DNA from: Candidatus Omnitrophota bacterium
GTDB lineage: Bacteria > Omnitrophota > Gorgyraeia > Duberdicusellales > 4484-171
Direction: 5' to 3'
Length of the DNA: 64,000 nucleotides
NCBI GenBank assembly: GCA_003154195.1
Contig: PMCS01000029.1
Span: 304,960-368,959, forward strand
In this document: positions 23,981 to 31,075 of the stretch, in pieces
Layout of the letters: the number at the start of each line of letters is the position of its first letter
How positions within the stretch are numbered: position 1 is the first letter of the stretch
Notes under the pieces: model-generated
The model's database searches: none
What the model was told of the DNA's origin: nothing
What the model saw: only the letters and a program-made list of their open reading frames with translations
Position numbers and translations under genes: made by a program

Positions 23981-24469
23981 TTATTTTTTAACGGGCCGGG
24001 CATGCCCGGCCCCTACCTGGTTATAAATCATTTCTATCAGTATCATACTTGCTTCTTTCCGTACTTTATCCCGGCTTCCTTTTATCATTACTTTTTTAAC
24101 CGACGTTTTATTTCGGTAAGAAACGCTTAAGAAGACCTGCCCTACATTTTTTCCGGCCGGCCCGGCAAATCCGGTGAGCGCGGCGCCAACGTCGGTATTT
24201 AAGATATTCTTTACGCGCCTGGCTAGTAAAGAGGTAATTTTTCTTGATACACCCTGGGTTTGCCGCAAAATTGCCGGAGGTATTTTGAAAAACTTAGTTT
24301 TTGCTTCCAAGGAGTAAACGACAATACTGCCCCGGAAGATTCGGGAGCTGCCGGGTATTTTTGTTAAAAGATAGGAAACGTATCCGCCGCTTGCCGATTC
24401 AGCGCAGGCCAGCGTAAGTTTTTCTTTCCCAAGCTTATCGATCAATTTTCGAAGGGTTTTCATAATCAT
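23981..24469 (-). CDS. pncC: CinA C-terminal domain protein (nicotinamide-nucleotide amidohydrolase PncC-like)
   Basis: CinA_C signature LTLACAESASGGYVSYLLTKIPGSS...GAALTGFAGP. Confidence 0.75.
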   Translation of the reverse strand: MIMKTLRKLIDKLGKEKLTLACAESASGGYVSYLLTKIPGSSRIFRGSIVVYSLEAKTKFFKIPPAILRQTQGVSRKITSLLARRVKNILNTDVGAALTGFAGPAGKNVGQVFLSVSYRNKTSVKKVMIKGSRDKVRKEASMILIEMIYNQVGAGHARPVKK

Positions 24470-24480
24470 ATTGTATCAGA

Positions 24481-24509
24481 GTTTATTTTTTGCGCAGTAA
24501 AAAATAAAC
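24481..24509. promoter_or_regulatory. AT-rich perfect palindrome GTTTATTTTTTGC-GCAG-TAAAAAATAAAC (copy 1 of 3)
   Basis: Inverted repeat seen by eye. The same core is found at 25727-25759 and 26581-26605. Confidence 0.5.
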
Positions 24510-24676
24510 TAAAAATAACTATTTGACTGCCGAAGCGGTTTATGTTAAAACTAAAGATAATTTCCGGATTTTCTCTTGTTACGCCGCGAAGGAGCCAACG
24601 TTAATATTATTGATAAACTCGACGGCTGTTTTTGGAGCATTTATAAAAGCTGCTGCAATGGCCCTTAACGGTAACC

Positions 24677-24838
24677 ATGCCTATGGAAACTTTGCATCCT
24701 AAGATAGGTATCATCGGCGGGGGTAATGTAGGCATACGTTATGCCTGCGGCCTGATGATCAATGGCCTGGCGCGTTCGATCATCATCGTTGATTTGGATA
24801 AGAAGCGTTCTCAGGGTGAGGCGAAGTATTGCGCTTAA
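24677..24838 (+). pseudogene. Remnant of the N-terminus of an L-lactate/malate dehydrogenase (NAD-binding Rossmann start), 53 codons then stop
   Basis: Translation MPMETLHPKIGIIGGGNVGIRYACGLMINGLARSIIIVDLDKKRSQGEAKYCA* matches the LDH/MDH N-terminal signature KIGIIGAGNVG...LIDI...GEA. No continuation follows. Confidence 0.55.
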
Positions 24839-24914
24839 ACCTTAATGAAGAAGAAGGGGAAAATTTTGAGAAGTCGGCGCAAACGCTGAAAAATATTATA
24901 AGAGGGGTAGGTTT

Positions 24915-25727
24915 ATGATTGTGGAAGCTAAGTTGATAAAGAGAATACCCCGGACTGCCAACGTGGAAAGCTTCAGATTTGTTCTTTTAAGTAAGGTTGA
25001 TAATAAACCGTTGAGCCAAAATGTGAATTCGGTGCTGCCTTCCCCCGCCGCCGCGCCTTTTTCCGCCAAAACCGGCGTCGGCAGTTCTTTAAACCAAAGG
25101 TTTAATTTTTTCCCGGGTCAATTTGTCCAGGTGATTTTTGACCGGACGAATATCAGCAATGCTTTATTTAATAAATATCTTTCTTTTTCCTCTTCGCCTA
25201 CCAAAGATTACATGGAGGTCACCAAAAAATTAAGCGAAAGCCAATTTTCCCAGAAACTTAAGAATTTAAAAATAGACGATACAGTCTTTTTAAACGGGCC
25301 GCTGGGCAATTGCGTATTCAGGGACAATGACGACAGGCTGTGTTTTCTTGTTGGAGGAATAGGAGTAACCCCGGCAATTTCCATTATCGAATACGTGATG
25401 GAAAAAAAGCTGGGCACGGATATTACGCTTATTTATTCCAATAAAACGGAAGGCGACATCGCTTTCAAGAGAGAATTGGATGTATGGCAGGCCATAAATA
25501 AGAAGGTAAGGGTTGTATATATTGTAACGGAAGCAAGGCCGGAAGACAAATCGTGTTTGTGGGGGGTACTCAACAAAAATTTATTGATCCGCGAAGTTAA
25601 AGACATAGATAAGAGGGTTTTTTTTATTTTCGGCCCGCCGGTAATGGTTACGGCAATGAAGAATTTATGCGTCGAAGCCGATTGCCCAGGCAGGAGCATC
25701 AGGGCAGAGAATTTTATCGGGTACTAA
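24915..25727 (+). CDS. FAD/NAD(P)-binding oxidoreductase of the ferredoxin-NADP reductase (FNR/PyrK-like) family
   Basis: FPGQFVQVIF...FLVGGIGVTPAISII...FIFGPPVMV. RBS AGAGGGG. Confidence 0.6.
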   Translation: MIVEAKLIKRIPRTANVESFRFVLLSKVDNKPLSQNVNSVLPSPAAAPFSAKTGVGSSLNQRFNFFPGQFVQVIFDRTNISNALFNKYLSFSSSPTKDYMEVTKKLSESQFSQKLKNLKIDDTVFLNGPLGNCVFRDNDDRLCFLVGGIGVTPAISIIEYVMEKKLGTDITLIYSNKTEGDIAFKRELDVWQAINKKVRVVYIVTEARPEDKSCLWGVLNKNLLIREVKDIDKRVFFIFGPPVMVTAMKNLCVEADCPGRSIRAENFIGY

Positions 25728-25775
25728 TGTTTATTTTTTGCGGCGCAAAAAATAAACATCGGCCGCTTCGCGGAT
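25727..25775. promoter_or_regulatory. AT-rich palindrome ATGTTTATTTTTTGCG-G-CGCAAAAAATAAACAT plus GCCGCTTCGCGGAT box (copy 2 of 3)
   Basis: A 16-bp perfect stem, followed by catcggccgcttcgcggat. Lies between the FNR-like stop and the nfu-like gene. Confidence 0.55.
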
Positions 25776-25816
25776 AAAGAAAAATAAACAATAAATCAAA
25801 AAATGGAGATAAGGAC

Positions 25817-26041
25817 ATGAAAGAAAAAGTCGAAAAAGCCTTAAAAAAAATCAGGCCGTTTCTGGAAGCGGAAGGCGGCAACGTTGAGCTGGTTGACGTT
25901 ACGGATGATGGCGTGGTCAAGTTGCGCTTAAGCGGCGCATGCGGGTGTTGCCCGATGAGTGCTTATACCTTGAAAATGGGGATTGAGCAGAAACTTAAAG
26001 AGGAAGTGCCGGAAGTCAAGAGCGTGGAGCAGGTAAAGTGA
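25817..26041 (+). CDS. NifU-like (Nfu) Fe-S cluster assembly domain protein
   Basis: [37 protein letters not shown]. Confidence 0.8.
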
Positions 26042-26092
26042 AAACGCAACGCACATCTTTTGAGAGTATGGCAAAAAGAAAAAGGAGGAACT

Positions 26093-26578
26093 ATGGATAA
26101 GAAATTATATGAGGCGATTAATGACCAGATTAACAATGAGTTGGCTTCAGCGTATTTGTATTTGTCGATGGCGTCATATTTCGATTCAATGAACCTTGGT
26201 GGTTTCGCGCATTGGATGAAGAAGCAGGCTAAAGAAGAGCATAAACACGCGATGAAGTTTTATGAATTTTTGAACGATCGGAATGAAAGGGTAGTTTTAA
26301 AAGCGATTGCTCAGCCAGCGACGGAATTTTCTTCCGCCTTGGAAGTATTTAAGAAGACGCTTGAGCATGAAAAAAAAGTTACTGCTTTAATCGATAATAT
26401 TTATGCGATTGCCAAAAAAGTTAACGATAACTCCGCGGAAGTAATGTTGCATTGGTTTATTAATGAGCAAGTGGAAGAGGAAAAGAGTCCCGCGACGATT
26501 TTGGAAACACTTAAGATTATTAAGGCGGAAGGCGCGGCATTGATTATGTTGGATAGGGAATTGGCCAAGAGAGAATAA
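26093..26578 (+). CDS. ftn: Ferritin
   Basis: Ferritin di-iron ligand pattern (E..AS..Y...A......GFA.W...QA.EE..HA). RBS AAAGGAGG lies 6 nt before the ATG at 26093; the ORF is open from 26060. Confidence 0.8.
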   Translation: MDKKLYEAINDQINNELASAYLYLSMASYFDSMNLGGFAHWMKKQAKEEHKHAMKFYEFLNDRNERVVLKAIAQPATEFSSALEVFKKTLEHEKKVTALIDNIYAIAKKVNDNSAEVMLHWFINEQVEEEKSPATILETLKIIKAEGAALIMLDRELAKRE

Positions 26579-26580
26579 TA

Positions 26581-26625
26581 TTATTTTTTGCTGCGCAAAA
26601 AATAAATGGCATCTGCTTCGCGGAT
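26581..26625. promoter_or_regulatory. AT-rich palindrome TTATTTTTTGC-TGC-GCAAAAAATAA plus CTGCTTCGCGGAT box (copy 3 of 3)
   Basis: The same bipartite motif as at 25727-25775. Located directly after the ftn stop and upstream of the Cys-rich peptide and the ArsP-HMA gene. Confidence 0.55.
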
Positions 26626-26685
26626 GGGGGCAAAGAAATAAGGAATAAATCCTTTAGAATATTTAAGAAAAGAGGAAGTTAAGAA

Positions 26686-26823
26686 TGAAAAAAAAGAAAG
26701 CTAAAAAAACAAAAACTAACGTTTGTTCGGTTTGCTGCGGCGTAAGCGCTAAAAAATCCAAATCAAAAACTAAATGTTGTCCGACTTCGATGACTTCCCG
26801 GGATAGAGGAAGTTGGAATATTT
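26686..26823 (+). CDS. Small (45 aa) Lys- and Cys-rich peptide
   Basis: MKKKKAKKTKTNVCSVCCGVSAKKSKSKTKCCPTSMTSRDRGSWNI, with RBS AGAGGAAG 6 nt upstream. It is missing from the supplied ORF track (below 60 aa) but has a good translation context. Confidence 0.4.
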
Positions 26824-26892
26824 AATGAGATTTGCACCGCGTACTACTAATTAAGCTAGCGCGGTACGAGTGTAGTCAAACTGCGGTGGATA

Positions 26893-28113
26893 ATGAATTT
26901 GTTTAACGCCTTCCTCTCCGAAATAATCAATCTCTGGCTTGACGTGTCGCCGTATTTGTTACTGGGTATTGTTATTGCCGGGTTCATGCATTTATCCGTC
27001 GGCAGGGAATTCATTACCCGGCAGCTCGGCAAGGGCGGTCCGGCTTCGATTATCAAAGCTACGCTGATCGGTATACCATTGCCGGTTTGTTCCTGCGGGG
27101 TTATTCCTTTAGCCGCGGCTTTACGCAAAGACGGTGCGCATAGATCAAGCGTGCTTTCCTTTATGGTGTCCACGCCTACCACCGGTATCGATTCGATCAT
27201 GGCGACCTATTCGCTTTTGGGGCCGCTGTTCGCGTTTTTTCGGCCCCTGGCGGCCCTTGTATCGGGAATTTTAGTAGGTCTGGCTGATTATTTTATTGAA
27301 GGCAGGAAAGAAAAAAACATTCCGTTTATTAAACATGAGCACGTCAAAATAAAACCGGTGTTTAAACTGAAAGAATTTTTTAGATATTCGTTTGTGGAAA
27401 TACCGCAGGATATCGGCAGATGGTTGATCATCGGCACAATTATCGGCGCGGCCATTTCCGCATTCATCCCTAAAGGACTATTTTCACATTACCTGGGTTT
27501 TCCTCTTGATTATCTTGCGGCAATCGGCATCGGTATCCCTTTGTATGTTTGCGCTAGTGGTTCTATCCCTATCGCGGTTTCGTTGATGGCTAAAGGTATT
27601 TCCGCCGGCGCGGTACTGGCTTTTTTGATTACCGGCCCGGCTACCAACGCGATTACCCTTTCTTTCGTTCGCGCTAAACTGGGCAAAAAATCTTTCTATA
27701 TTTATCTGGCCAGTATTATTTTTACGGCAGTCACCTTAGGGTTGATTTTCGATAAGTTGTGGATTATTTTTCGCGGCAATCCCGGGTTTTTCGCGCCGGG
27801 CGGGGAGATGGTGGCGATGCCGTTTAAATCAGTTTGCGGGATATTTTTGTTGATAATTATTATTAATTCCCTGTTTAGAAAAGAACAGTGCGCGATTAAA
27901 CCGGATATTGTTATTTACGTGGACGATATTCATTGCCGGCAGTGTAAAATCGCTTTAGAAAGTAAAATCAGCGAATTAGCGGGGATCGAAGAGGTTTTCG
28001 TCGATATCGGAAACAAAAAGATAATTATGCGCGGAATTGTCGAGAAAGAAAAAGTTTTCGAAAAAATAAAAGAAGCGGGGTACCATCCTAATCCGGATAG
28101 ACCGCAACGATAA
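26893..28113 (+). CDS. ArsP/DUF318-family permease fused to a C-terminal heavy-metal-associated (HMA) CxxC domain
   Basis: ArsP signature PLPVCSCGVIPL within a polytopic membrane core. C-terminal HMA-like fold with HCRQC (VIYVDDIHCRQCKIALESKISELAGIEEVFVDIGNKKIIMRG). Confidence 0.65.
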   Translation: MNLFNAFLSEIINLWLDVSPYLLLGIVIAGFMHLSVGREFITRQLGKGGPASIIKATLIGIPLPVCSCGVIPLAAALRKDGAHRSSVLSFMVSTPTTGIDSIMATYSLLGPLFAFFRPLAALVSGILVGLADYFIEGRKEKNIPFIKHEHVKIKPVFKLKEFFRYSFVEIPQDIGRWLIIGTIIGAAISAFIPKGLFSHYLGFPLDYLAAIGIGIPLYVCASGSIPIAVSLMAKGISAGAVLAFLITGPATNAITLSFVRAKLGKKSFYIYLASIIFTAVTLGLIFDKLWIIFRGNPGFFAPGGEMVAMPFKSVCGIFLLIIIINSLFRKEQCAIKPDIVIYVDDIHCRQCKIALESKISELAGIEEVFVDIGNKKIIMRGIVEKEKVFEKIKEAGYHPNPDRPQR

Positions 28114-28148
28114 AGGAAAAAACTCATTCCGGTTGGTTGACAGAATTT

Positions 28149-30782
28149 CTATACCGTTAAAGTAATTTCTATGAAAATTTCTTTTTTATTCAATTTTTCG
28201 ATATCTTCTTTTTTAATAACGCATTGACTTCCGGTTCCGGCGATGATTTTTCCTTCCAGGCTTATATTTTTAATCCGCAATATCCCCAGTTTTTTGTTTT
28301 CCGCTGTTAACCGGAAATTATATTTTTTGCCGTCGCATTCAAACGATACCCCGATATTTTTTTTAAAAAAGTTTTTCCCGGTAAGTTTCGGTTCAATGGC
28401 TAAATCGCCCATCAAAAATTTTATCCCGATTATCTCCTCAATAAGGGTATAGACATACCAGCTGGCCGAGCCGGTGAGGAAAAAGTAAAGGCCTTTTCCC
28501 TGACGGTTGAAATATTCGGGAATCATTGGATAAATCCTGCCGCTTGTCGTCGACATTTTGTAGATAGAGTTGATTACTTCGAAACCTTCTTTGATATAAC
28601 CCTGCTTGTAGAGGGCATGGGCGAACATTACGGCCATGTGGCTGAAGACAGCGCCGTTTTCCTTGTCGCCGTAAGAAAAACCGAAGGCCCGGCCTAAATC
28701 CATATAAACATCGCCGAAATCGGTGTTGAGTCTGAACCCGCCGAATTTTTTGTCGAGAAGGTATTTTTTCGCCGCTTGCCACATTCTAGGGATTTGGTCC
28801 GGGCCGGCGACGCCGCTCATAATGGCAAAAACCTGCGGCGGCAGCATCATGTTTATTCTCTTACCGGTTTGGCCTTCCACGCGTATGCCTTTGTTGTCGT
28901 AATAGCCGTTAAAGAATCCCGGTTCAACCCATTCGTGTTCTTTGAGCCAACGGGAAGAATGCTCTCCCTTTTTTTCCAAGTCGGCGATCAGCGTGTTGAC
29001 GGAGATATCGATTTTTTCTCCGCTGGGTAATTCCGAAGCATGGAAATAGTCGTTGAGCCGGTTTTGTTTTTCCTGGACGCAGTCATAATTTATAGGCGTA
29101 TTCAAAGTGTCTAGAAGAATGATTAATTCTTTGGATATTTTCATAATATTTGTTTTTTCTTGGAGTTTTTTCAAGAAAAAACAAATATCTTTTAAATTAT
29201 CGCTGTACATAAAACTGAAGGTCACGCTTTCGCCCAAGTCCGGCGCCATGTCCAGACCGTCGTTCCAGTCGGCATTTTCCAGGCGCGTAACATTATGGTT
29301 ACCGACATTAAAAAATTGGACCAGCTGTTGAAGCAGGACATGTTCTAAGACGCTTGATTTTAAAACGTTCCCTCCCGCGTCGCGCTGTAAAAAATCCTTT
29401 TGGATAAATGAAGCGTCAATTTTTTTCGCCCGGTGAAGCTGATGGTCGCGAAAATAAGGTATTTCTTCAAGCAAGAGGTTTAAGTCCCGTGTCCGGTTGA
29501 GATACGATTTGAGCGTAAGATACGGCCAGACGCCGTGGTCCATCCATACCCGCGATATTTTGTTCCGGTCGGCAATAAAGTTTCCTTCCTGGGAGATAAT
29601 GGTTGCGTTGGAGCCGTCCAGCCGGACGCCGGAAAAATTATTTAATATTAACGCCCGCGCTTTTTCCGGTTCGGTCAATAATAAAGTTAAAGCGTCCTGC
29701 CATAAATCGCGCCAGCCCCGGCCGCCTTTGCCGTAATCAAAATGCGGCAGGAACGAACAGCCGAATAGTTTACGTAACGTCGGTTGGAATTTTACCCACA
29801 TCAGCCAGCCGTTAAAATCGCGGTTGGAGAAATCAAAGCTTATTTTGGCGAGATAATCAAGCCAGTATTTTTTAGTTTCCTCGAACGATCCGGCTATTTT
29901 TTCCGGATAAAAGAATCGTTTGGTCAGCCGATTGATTTCTTCATGGGATTGGGCGATGCCCATGATTAAAAAATAAGTTGTTGTTTCACCTTTTTTTAAA
30001 GTTTTTTCGGCAAAGCGTAACCCTGCGCAAATTTCTTTTCCGGCAAATTCGGCTTTATCTTTTTTCTGAGGTTTTATATTCTTATATACCGCGTCGGGCG
30101 TCATTATATCACTTTCGCCCAGGAAAATATCGAGCGTAGGGAATTGTCCTTGCGGCGCGACGGCATTATCCTGATAGCCAAAAACAAAATAACTGGTCCG
30201 GTTTTTACTATGGCCTTTTTCGTCAAAGACCATTGTCGGCGTTAAGACTATGCCGTTTTTAGTCAGCTGGACGCGATTAAGCAGGGAGCTCACGTGACGA
30301 TGGTCGCGCAGATTTTTTTCGCCGCGGCCGAATAAAGGCAGAAATGAGGTCGGCAATAATTTGAGGGTATTTTTTGAGATATTTCTTATTTTTATCTGCA
30401 TTATTTCGCAAGAGGTATCATGGGGAACGAAGTTGGTTATTTCCGCGGCAATATTTTTTGTTTTTTTGATGATTTTATGATAAAGAAAACCGGCTTCCAG
30501 CGTGTCTTCGTCCCACGCTTGGGATAAACGCAGAATTTCATTATTATTTATTTTTAAGAAGAAATCACGGCGGCAGAGAGGGCTGCAGCGCAGGTCTTCG
30601 CTGCTCGCGGGTACCGTAAGAAAGGTGGCGTTATTTTTTTTGATATCCCCGGATAGATTGGGGCCGATGGCGCTTAAAATATTCCCGTTTTTATCAGTAA
30701 GGGGAAAATAAAGGTTATATTTTAACGGATTTTTTACGATAAATGTTCCCTTGTCGTCGATAAATTTATAAATCATTTGCAC
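28149..30782 (-). CDS. GH94-like glycoside phosphorylase (cellobiose/chitobiose phosphorylase family)
   Basis: The N-terminus MIYKFIDDKGTFIVKNPLKYNLYFPL matches the GH94 start Y(G)FDD..REYVI..P.TP.PW.NYL. The 877-aa length fits the family. Confidence 0.55.
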   Translation of the reverse strand: MQMIYKFIDDKGTFIVKNPLKYNLYFPLTDKNGNILSAIGPNLSGDIKKNNATFLTVPASSEDLRCSPLCRRDFFLKINNNEILRLSQAWDEDTLEAGFLYHKIIKKTKNIAAEITNFVPHDTSCEIMQIKIRNISKNTLKLLPTSFLPLFGRGEKNLRDHRHVSSLLNRVQLTKNGIVLTPTMVFDEKGHSKNRTSYFVFGYQDNAVAPQGQFPTLDIFLGESDIMTPDAVYKNIKPQKKDKAEFAGKEICAGLRFAEKTLKKGETTTYFLIMGIAQSHEEINRLTKRFFYPEKIAGSFEETKKYWLDYLAKISFDFSNRDFNGWLMWVKFQPTLRKLFGCSFLPHFDYGKGGRGWRDLWQDALTLLLTEPEKARALILNNFSGVRLDGSNATIISQEGNFIADRNKISRVWMDHGVWPYLTLKSYLNRTRDLNLLLEEIPYFRDHQLHRAKKIDASFIQKDFLQRDAGGNVLKSSVLEHVLLQQLVQFFNVGNHNVTRLENADWNDGLDMAPDLGESVTFSFMYSDNLKDICFFLKKLQEKTNIMKISKELIILLDTLNTPINYDCVQEKQNRLNDYFHASELPSGEKIDISVNTLIADLEKKGEHSSRWLKEHEWVEPGFFNGYYDNKGIRVEGQTGKRINMMLPPQVFAIMSGVAGPDQIPRMWQAAKKYLLDKKFGGFRLNTDFGDVYMDLGRAFGFSYGDKENGAVFSHMAVMFAHALYKQGYIKEGFEVINSIYKMSTTSGRIYPMIPEYFNRQGKGLYFFLTGSASWYVYTLIEEIIGIKFLMGDLAIEPKLTGKNFFKKNIGVSFECDGKKYNFRLTAENKKLGILRIKNISLEGKIIAGTGSQCVIKKEDIEKLNKKEIFIEITLTV

Positions 30783-30953
30783 CCCCTGTTATTTTAAATT
30801 GGACATTGAGCATCTATTAATTATTATTAAGCAGAGAAGTTTATTTTTTTTCGCCCAGGATAAAATAAATTTGGCCGGAATAGGAGTTTATAAGGCCGAA
30901 TTTATTTTACACCAAATTTGCTATTTTTCATTAATATTTTTTGCTAATTCGCC

Positions 30954-30982
30954 TTGACAAGCGGCGTATTATGTTTTATAAA
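30954..30982 (+). promoter_or_regulatory. Sigma70-type promoter TTGACA-17-TATAAA upstream of pilin gene A
   Basis: TTGACA at 30954-30959 and TATAAA at 30977-30982 with 17-nt spacing, about 95 nt before the pilin ATG. Confidence 0.5.
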
Positions 30983-31075
30983 TAAAGGGGGAATACTAAG
31001 TTGCCCTCATTATATAATTACTACCCCTCGGAAAAACGTAAGTGTTATCGCACTCAATAAAGGCGGTATGGGCCA

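Follow-up and report, generated by a model that had tools for sequence, protein, structure and literature searches.

A small four-cysteine protein beside an SO_0444-family permease in an iron and oxidative-stress gene cluster of Omnitrophota

The permease and its described relatives

SO_0444 of Shewanella oneidensis is annotated as a copper and zinc efflux transporter on the basis of transposon-mutant fitness under ZnSO4 and CuCl2, with complementation, and its gene is accompanied by a ZntR-like regulator (PMC3219624). In Nitratiruptor, a family member ranks with the genes that respond most strongly to Cd and Cu by induction (PMC10092412). ArsP of Campylobacter jejuni (TC 2.A.119), an efflux permease for methylarsenite and roxarsone, belongs to the same Pfam family, PF03773, whose name ArsP_1 stems from the organoarsenical role (TCDB 2.A.119). 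Here, a PF03773 permease gene, P, is described together with the gene of a small cysteine- and lysine-rich protein, S, which lies upstream of P across a 67-nt spacer. They are encoded in a 64,000-nucleotide stretch of a Candidatus Omnitrophota bacterium (the window; NCBI GenBank assembly GCA_003154195.1, contig PMCS01000029.1, positions 304,960 to 368,959 of the forward strand), where they are the last two of five genes on the same (+) strand, after those of an FNR-like reductase, NifU and ferritin (Table 1). Both genes are real, P has its place in a named family, S is conserved with its cysteine pattern, and the two genes are found together repeatedly. The reading favoured here, which we consider rather probable, is that S is a Cys4 metal-binding mini-protein that works with P, a soft-metal efflux permease, inside an iron and oxidative-stress operon.

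P is a protein of 406 amino acids (aa) when read as the whole open reading frame (ORF), and of 404 aa in public gene calls, which begin at the TTG at 26899. Residues 5–286 match Pfam ArsP_1 (PF03773) with an E-value of 5.1e-43, and the C-terminal domain matches Pfam HMA (PF00403) over positions 1–62 of the 62-position model (E 4.4e-08; 33.8 bits against a cut-off of 24.8). Among the NCBIfam models, the best match is NF033936, the SO_0444 family Cu/Zn efflux transporter, with 318.8 bits and an E-value of 4.3e-95. NF033936, an equivalog model, has a cut-off of 300 bits and comprises 351 positions, which do not include the HMA domain. SaoE, the next-best model, reaches 144.9 bits, far below its cut-off of 325. 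CopZ-type models match the HMA domain of P below their cut-offs. In the PDB, the C-terminus of P matches solved HMA domains of the ATP7A/B Cu-ATPases and of bacterial heavy-metal-binding proteins (2kyz, 2aj0) with E-values from 2e-06 to 9e-03; no solved structure was matched by the sequence of the membrane core.

A protein search with P returned 4313 relatives, the closest of which are mostly labelled Candidatus Omnitrophota, and some relatives carry the JGI label 'YraQ (UPF0718)/copper chaperone CopZ'. Judged from these matches, P is an ordinary member of the named SO_0444 family. The HMA fusion is common and already catalogued, because PF03773 and PF00403 are combined in all but a few of the best 120 relatives (>100). 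P shares the PF03773 core and the CSC signature with the SO_0444 family. Unlike the Shewanella gene with its ZntR-like regulator, the P gene has those of ferritin, NifU, an FNR-like reductase and the Cys4 protein S for neighbours. The HMA domain resembles CopZ-type metallochaperones in its model match and in the canonical position of its CxxC. It differs from them in being fused to a secondary-transporter-type permease, being neither free nor on a P1B-ATPase, and its motif is DIHCxxC in place of GMTCxxC.

The motif residues of P are strongly conserved. The first repeat carries PLPVCSCGVIP, and the counterpart motif of the second repeat is PLYVCASGSIP with C220, in the alignment form PLYVC(A/S)TGSIP. 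In DIHCRQCK of the HMA domain, the codon of C348 is at 27934–27936 and that of C351 at 27943–27945. C66, S67, C68, C220, C348 and C351 are all invariant in an alignment of 34 relatives, and H148 and H150, an HxH in the basic central loop, are nearly invariant in the same alignment. Both repeat motifs and the hydropathy segments fit a topology of two repeats with four transmembrane segments each, as in C. jejuni ArsP. The side of the membrane on which the HMA domain lies is ambiguous by hydropathy and the positive-inside rule, the helices being of low hydrophobicity.

An earlier reading of the window, made from the sequence alone (the sequence-only reading), had noticed the ArsP signature PVCSCGVIP, the HCRQC motif and an HMA-like C-terminus, all of which are borne out. 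It had also linked ArsP with organoarsenical efflux and had proposed an uncharacterised metal- or metalloid-handling module. Neither of these two points is supported: P passes the equivalog cut-off of a family with mutant-fitness evidence in Shewanella (PMC3219624), its HMA fusion is common, and the genes around it are those of CinA, the FNR-like reductase, NifU, ferritin and GH94, with no ars genes among the annotated neighbours. It is very unlikely that P is an ArsP-type permease for methylarsenite or roxarsone and S an arsenic-binding thiol peptide. The PF03773 match, the TCDB family 2.A.119 and the vicinal-type cysteines of the membrane motif would fit such a role, but the best curated model is that of Cu/Zn efflux, above its cut-off, and both accessory domains found on these permeases, HMA and YHS, are cation-binding modules. 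No ars genes are seen in any annotated cluster of S or P, where the neighbours are iron and redox genes. Unlike C. jejuni ArsP, P has no ars context, carries the added cation-binding HMA domain and matches SO_0444 better. For P itself, this amounts only to a correction of the label, from organoarsenical ArsP to SO_0444-type metal efflux.

By analogy with the family, the most likely role of P is the export of a thiophilic metal cation, either divalent or monovalent. The family record points to Cu, Zn or Cd, and the gene context leaves Fe(II) as a candidate.

Two variants of the permease were seen among its relatives. Three sequences of the permease alignment (P0060, P0074 and P0085) carry an extra Cys-rich tail beyond the HMA domain, e.g. 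...SDACSDPSCACA. In locus L093 (2492–3550), the permease ORF ends within the HMA domain right past DIHCKH, at 352 aa, which may be a frameshift, an assembly error or a truncated gene.

The small protein S and its family

S is encoded by an ORF with an ATG start and 46 codons followed by TAA. The peptide has C14-x-x-C17-C18 and C31-C32, that is, five cysteines in 46 residues, with a net charge of +13 and a pI of 10.2. The sequence-only reading had described this ORF as starting at 26686 with 45 codons; the ORF stands, while its start is one nucleotide earlier and its length one codon greater (26685–26825, 46 codons, and the peptide as written had 46 residues). The good ribosome-binding site (AGAGGA, 8 nt before the ATG), the very basic composition and the CxxCC and CC motifs that it had reported are all present.

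A word-indexed protein search with the S peptide alone matched only S itself. By tblastn against the fetched permease loci, a homologue was found in L093 (MKQRVTKKTKPYVCVVCGKKKKTSKKGKCCGKNMLSEDKGIGAM), and a profile of these two sequences run against 5.8 billion proteins found a third member (E 4e-10). An exhaustive search with a hidden Markov model (HMM) over 1.84 billion representatives gave about 20 whole-length homologues of 42–58 aa, five of them at E <= 1e-10 and the best at 2e-13. The long proteins returned by the HMM search are eukaryotic C2H2 zinc-finger arrays that match one knuckle, and they were set aside as motif-level similarity, not homology. Fourteen contigs on record encode an identical S, including PMEA01000109.1 of GCA_003154645.1.

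In the alignment of 21 S sequences, C14, C17, C31, C32 and M36 (window numbering) are invariant and G42 is nearly so. C18 of the window is not conserved across the family, leaving four conserved cysteines. The family consensus consists of a K-rich N-terminal tail, [YF][VI]CxVCG, a K-rich linker, CCGxxM and xSxEKGSWN[L]. The core can be written as CxxC-X9-14-CC-x3-M, with the spacer X13 in the window, followed by the KGSWN tail. The net charge of the members ranges from +2 to +16.

S behaves as a protein-coding gene. In all three pairs of the three first-found members, differences at third codon positions (24–25) exceed those at first (15–18) and second (10–16) positions, and different codons are used at about half of the conserved residues. 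Ten distinct S loci, the window included, were examined, and in all ten S is preceded by a GGAGG-type Shine-Dalgarno (SD) site 5–10 nt upstream. In both L172 and L178, S begins before the gene ahead of it has ended. Pfam and NCBIfam scans found no model above threshold for the family and no match at all for the window peptide, and in public records the S clusters are unnamed or 'hypothetical protein' in 10 of 10 checked. Judged from conserved homologues, coding-type substitutions, SD sites, start overlaps and the lack of a model over threshold, S is a real gene of a conserved family that no database names.

These facts bear on the view that the small ORF is non-functional or something else altogether: a chance ORF in an A-rich spacer, a leader peptide, a metallothionein or a precursor of a ribosomally synthesised and post-translationally modified peptide (RiPP). 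The A-rich, low-complexity sequence with an internal in-frame DNA repeat and the failure of the word-based search had spoken for a chance ORF. With a conserved family of about 20 clusters, coding-type substitutions and SD sites, this view is essentially refuted. The sequence-only reading had offered a metallothionein-like peptide and a RiPP-like precursor and had asked whether the ORF is conserved in homologous loci. It is conserved, first seen in L093. A metallothionein fits poorly with five cysteines in 46 residues, only four of which are conserved in the family. A RiPP precursor is at odds with the conserved Cys core and C-terminus and with the lack of any maturase-type gene among the neighbours in the ten annotated loci. 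The hairpin between S and P folds no better than shuffled sequences (z -0.6), which also counts against this view. A metallochaperone, likewise offered by the sequence-only reading, would be a possible role.

An in-frame imperfect direct repeat (D1/D2, 48–54 nt apart) is seen at 26700–26783 within S, encoding K-x-K-T-x-x-C twice. It hints at an internal duplication as the origin of the two Cys knuckles, but the low complexity of the A-rich sequence may be explanation enough.

A DUF5661 gene (92–94 aa; 2459–2743 in L172 and 4726–5004 in L178) lies immediately 5' of S in two loci and overlaps its start. DUF5661 may be a further conserved partner of S.

The closest described proteins for S are rubredoxin and desulforedoxin (Dx), both of which are acidic. 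In Dx, iron is held by four cysteines in an Fe(Cys)4 site. The first knuckle of S, K-x-Y-V-C-x-V-C-G-K, is nearly identical to the N-terminus of rubredoxin, where [KR]-x-Y-V-C-x-V-C-G is found, and the second knuckle, CCGxDM, is the Dx signature. Unlike rubredoxin, S has CC in the second knuckle in place of CPxCG, lacks the aromatic core and is about 10 aa shorter. With Dx and the N-terminal domain of desulfoferrodoxin (PF06397, TIGR00319; 1DXG/1CFW), S shares CxxCG...CCGxxM, a length of about 40 aa and the occurrence in oxidative-stress operons of anaerobes. It differs from Dx in its basic charge, in the added conserved EKGSWN tail, and in its lysine-rich linker and N-terminal tail, where Dx has hydrophobic beta strands. 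The two are also distinct within one cluster, a canonical Dx gene coexisting with S in L172.

A PDB search with the 21-sequence S profile gave Dx (1CFW/1DXG) at E 0.032 as the only match over the whole motif (Dx residues 4–36). The other matches, eukaryotic C2H2 arrays and rubredoxin, mostly cover a single knuckle and were taken as motif-level. Alignment of the S profile with two Dx sequences by hhalign gave a probability of 84.5% over 27 columns. In the Pfam scan, PF06397 is the commonest weak match, seen in 8 of 21 members with E 0.0074 at best, and the protein P0123 reaches 11.5 bits (E 0.25) against a gathering threshold of 23 bits. In the NCBIfam scan, NF033497 and TIGR00319 lead the weak matches; 7 of 21 members weakly match a rubrerythrin-like model of the rubredoxin type, and 4 of 21 the FeS4 domain of desulfoferrodoxin. 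From these similarities, the four cysteines of S most likely form one mononuclear metal site of the rubredoxin or Dx type, holding Fe or Zn. S is not filed as a member of the Dx family.

Association of S with permeases across loci

A PF03773 permease lies within the same-strand cluster of S in six of the ten loci, so the pairing with a Cys-rich peptide that had been noticed in the window recurs in other genomes. The permease carries an HMA domain in the window (reductase-NifU-ferritin-S-P), in L093 (SufBD-NifU-S-VIT1-P, with the ferritin-like/VIT1 gene between S and the permease) and in L177. L177 is S-P alone, the two genes being 6 nt apart and the flanking genes unrelated and on the other strand. 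The permease carries a YHS domain in L172 (FUR-reductase-NifU-Dx-rubrerythrin-DUF5661-S-rubrerythrin-?-P) and in L173/L174, where the order is S-reductase-rubredoxin-rubrerythrin-superoxide reductase (SOR)-rubrerythrin-glutaredoxin (Grx)-P-thioredoxin reductase (TrxR). The sixth is L178 (FUR-reductase-NifU-DUF5661-S-transaldolase/rubredoxin-rubrerythrin-Grx-TrxR-PNPOx-P). The permeases of L093, L177 and L178 score 329–333 bits on NF033936, above the SO_0444 cut-off, while the YHS-bearing permeases of L172 and L173 score about 115 bits and represent a more distant PF03773 subfamily. Since S recurs in PF03773 clusters, and once as a bare two-gene unit, it probably works with the permease.

The setting of S and P is consistent from locus to locus. 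Their neighbours include FUR, NAD_binding_1, NifU, Dx, rubredoxin, rubrerythrin, SOR, ferritin, VIT1, Grx, TrxR and AhpC. NifU is present in five of the ten S loci, and the FNR-like reductase gene of the window is also found in the related clusters L089, L172, L173 and L178. Close relatives of the permease are accompanied by thioredoxin with NifS/IscU; by flavodiiron protein, rubrerythrin, Grx, TrxR and PNPOx; or by NAD_binding_1, NifU and VIT1. In L089, the best syntenic relative, a VIT1-type gene ends 3 nt ahead of the permease start. A fusion of about 290 aa, ferritin-like and VIT1, fills the slot of the window ferritin in L089 (1445–2317) and L093 (1569–2438), and its domain order is reminiscent of a membrane-bound ferritin-type iron exporter.

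A way in which the two proteins would act can be proposed. S would bind one metal ion through its four cysteines and would be a cytosolic or membrane-peripheral metal-binding partner of P, in putative contact with it. P would export a thiophilic cation, with both the metal and the direction of transport taken as predictions. In what would be a regulon of oxidative stress and iron detoxification, S could be a metal donor or buffer for the metal-binding domain of P, or could act on the cysteines of P as a redox helper that keeps them functional. A regulator of the Fur/PerR type may control the cluster: the clusters of L172 and L178 begin with a FUR-family gene, and none was found adjoining the cluster of the window.

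Several observations weigh against the proposed partnership and against the metal site on which it draws. Among about 160 surveyed permease loci, S occurs only in L093, which makes the association weak when viewed from the permease and implies that the permease does not need S in general; in 80 genome loci of relatives of P, no comparable ORF was found directly 5' of the permease. No permease is seen with S in L171 (VIT1-S-AhpC), L176 (ferritin-S-?) and L179 (NifU-1Fe-SOR-S-Ldh-nitroreductase-OsmC), on contigs of only 2.2 kb, 1 kb and 2.8 kb, respectively, the last of which is binned as Aenigmatarchaeota. In L175 (S-DsbH-like thioredoxin), no permease was found up to 4 kb downstream of S. The position of S directly 3' of 1Fe-SOR in L179 and the rubrerythrin, SOR and rubredoxin genes around it in L172 and L173 fit a redox role in which the permease has no part. 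With a mean net charge of -0.3, the HMA domains are about neutral, giving no electrostatic case for the docking of S; an electrostatic fit of basic S to the HMA domain was considered and dropped. As to the metal site, the similarities of S to Dx are all below curated thresholds, and the window peptide itself matches no Pfam or NCBIfam model. The defining metal-binding pattern of Dx is CXXCX15CC (PMC3116461). The spacer of S is X13 in the window and X9–14 in the family, against X15, so that S departs from this pattern in its spacing. AlphaFold2 models of S are of low confidence, with pLDDT (predicted local distance difference test) values of 48 from three sequences and 56 from 21 sequences.

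The same observations lead to the chief competing explanation, in which S is a free-standing, Dx-like Fe(Cys)4 electron carrier of superoxide and peroxide defence. S would take electrons from the FNR-like reductase and pass them to SOR or rubrerythrin, and its adjacency to the permease would reflect a shared regulon. In L179, S lies 4 nt past a 1Fe-SOR that has no Dx domain of its own; in L173, S heads the operon of reductase, rubredoxin, rubrerythrin and SOR; in L172, it is set between rubrerythrin genes; and the weak whole-length similarity of S is to Dx. The bare S-P pair of L177, however, contains no redox enzymes, and a canonical Dx or rubredoxin is already encoded in L172 and L173. The strongly basic charge of S (+2 to +16) and the lysine-rich linker in place of the hydrophobic strands of Dx also speak against an electron carrier. 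This explanation is possible, though it is given clearly less than even weight.

The partnership of S and P, if correct, may be extended to the metal itself, although only tentatively. S would then define a new family of metalloproteins with a single metal site, dedicated as partners to PF03773 permeases. In anaerobes, the permease clades with HMA or YHS domains would handle ferrous iron, not Cu/Zn, as an export route or safety valve under oxidative stress. Small Fe(Cys)4 proteins would serve them, namely S in Omnitrophota and rubredoxin in other groups. Such a role, if true, would explain why these permeases are found beside ferritin, VIT1, NifU and rubrerythrin in Omnitrophota, beside rubredoxin in other lineages, and after feoAB in Bacteroidales. 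This extension is doubtful as a whole.

In 11 of about 160 surveyed loci, a canonical rubredoxin gene shares the strand of the permease-HMA homologue and is no more than about 2 kb away from it. It is within 100 bp downstream of the permease in L071, L072, L136, L151 and L157, and the remaining six loci are L007, L010, L101, L107, L126 and L130. An ORF of PF12669 ('FeoB-associated Cys-rich') lies 46–85 bp upstream of the permease-HMA gene in seven loci: L049, L070, L051, L061, L064, L147 and L152. Those examined are Bacteroidales, and in the two checked, the genes for an OprB-type porin, a fused FeoAB, PF12669 and the permease follow one another on the same strand (L049, 1242–5239; L070, 1253–5254). 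These Bacteroidales clusters link the permease clade to a ferrous-iron uptake locus. Like S, the PF12669 protein is small, rich in Lys and Cys, and encoded upstream of a permease-HMA gene; unlike S, it has a transmembrane anchor, and its sequence shows no similarity to S. As an analogue of S it is a weak candidate: both of the loci checked have it behind feoAB, and it is primarily the partner of FeoB.

What stands out from these comparisons is a family of about 45 residues with an invariant four-Cys site, at home in iron and oxidative-stress operons of uncultured anaerobes, Omnitrophota and their relatives, where a PF03773 permease is often its neighbour. If S binds iron or zinc and communicates with the permease, it would be a partner protein for a transporter family whose mechanism and physiological substrates are barely known, and it would add a component to the peroxide and iron defence of anaerobes.

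Palindromes and other features of the locus

The positions of the features are collected in Table 1. The cluster is flanked by a divergent cinA gene on one side and a convergent GH94 gene on the other.

Table 1. Genes, domains and sequence elements of the S-P locus (window coordinates)
Feature	Position	Strand	Remarks
Palindrome copy 1, TTATTTTTTGC-GCA-GTAAAAAATAA, stem extends to 14 bp	24483–24507		cinA(-)/operon divergent gap; -11.7 kcal/mol, z -5.1
FNR-like FAD/NAD(P)H oxidoreductase	24915–25727	+	First gene of the cluster; Pfam NAD_binding_1 6e-13, FAD_binding_6 4e-05
Palindrome copy 2, perfect 11-3-11, stem extends to 15 bp	25731–25755		-15.5 kcal/mol, z -5.7
NifU-like Fe-S scaffold or carrier domain protein, 74 aa	25817–26041	+	Pfam NifU 1.5e-28
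Ferritin	26060–26578	+	Pfam Ferritin 1.1e-42; NCBIfam non-heme ferritin; alternative start 26093 giving 161 aa
Sigma-70-like promoter match, TGGATA-18-AATAAT	26550–26579	+	Consensus match only; ends 2 nt before copy 3
Palindrome copy 3, perfect 11-3-11, TTATTTTTTGC-N3-GCAAAAAATAA	26581–26605		RNA fold -8.2 kcal/mol
Shine-Dalgarno site of S, AGAGGA	26671–26676	+	8 nt 5' of ATG
Small Cys4 protein S, 46 aa, MKKKKAKKTKTNVCSVCCGVSAKKSKSKTKCCPTSMTSRDRGSWNI	26685–26825	+	ATG ORF; family-conserved
Permease P, SO_0444-family PF03773 with C-terminal HMA, 406 aa	26893–28113	+	Pfam, NCBIfam
Cys66-Ser67-Cys68 codons (PLPVCSCGVIP, repeat 1)	27088–27096	+	CSC invariant in 34-sequence alignment
HMA domain of P, residues 340–398, C348-x-x-C351	27910–28086	+	Pfam and PDB matches

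The palindromic element that the sequence-only reading had placed next to S is confirmed as copy 3, and the window contains two further copies. The AT-rich palindrome, of the form 14-3-14 (GTTTATTTTTTGC-N3-GCAAAAAATAAAC), has three matches in 64 kb against 0.01 expected, all in the intergenic gaps of the operon. Copy 2 begins 4 nt past the stop of the reductase gene and ends 61 nt before the start of NifU. Copy 3 begins 3 nt past the stop of the ferritin gene and ends 79 nt before S. The downstream sequence GCTTCGCGGAT is common to copies 2 and 3. The palindrome was searched for in relatives, including those carrying S, and none was found. It is a cis element specific to this operon, and may be an operator or an intercistronic RNA hairpin.

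The palindromes raise an explanation in which S is a tiny Zn-ribbon-like nucleic-acid binder, acting as a metal- or redox-responsive regulator or as an RNA binder on its own operon, possibly at these three sites. The extreme lysine content and a pI of about 10 would suit such a protein. So would the first knuckle, which matches knuckles of the C2H2 and rubredoxin types, and the place of S at the head of its unit in L173 and L177, where autoregulators are often found. The three palindromes are operon-specific in the window, but the S-carrying relatives have none, and a FUR-family regulator already heads the operons of L172 and L178. No DNA-binding fold or family was matched in the Pfam and NCBIfam scans. 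A nucleic-acid binder is thus considered improbable, and the partnership with the permease is preferred.

The sigma-70-like match in Table 1 is the only one in 25700–28400, where such matches are fewer than in shuffled sequences. An Rfam scan of 24000–31000 (E <= 1) found no riboswitch or leader RNA and gave one chance match to a microRNA model. The hairpin in the gap between S and P (26826–26895) was considered as an attenuator or terminator and rejected, with the same z of -0.6 as given above.

Upstream of the operon, a 53-aa ORF at 24677–24838 (+), MPMETLHPKIGIIGGGNVG..., resembles the N-terminal Rossmann part of lactate/malate dehydrogenase (Ldh_1_N, E 1e-4, below the cut-off). It is probably the remnant of a decayed gene. 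In L179, a full Ldh gene comes after S.

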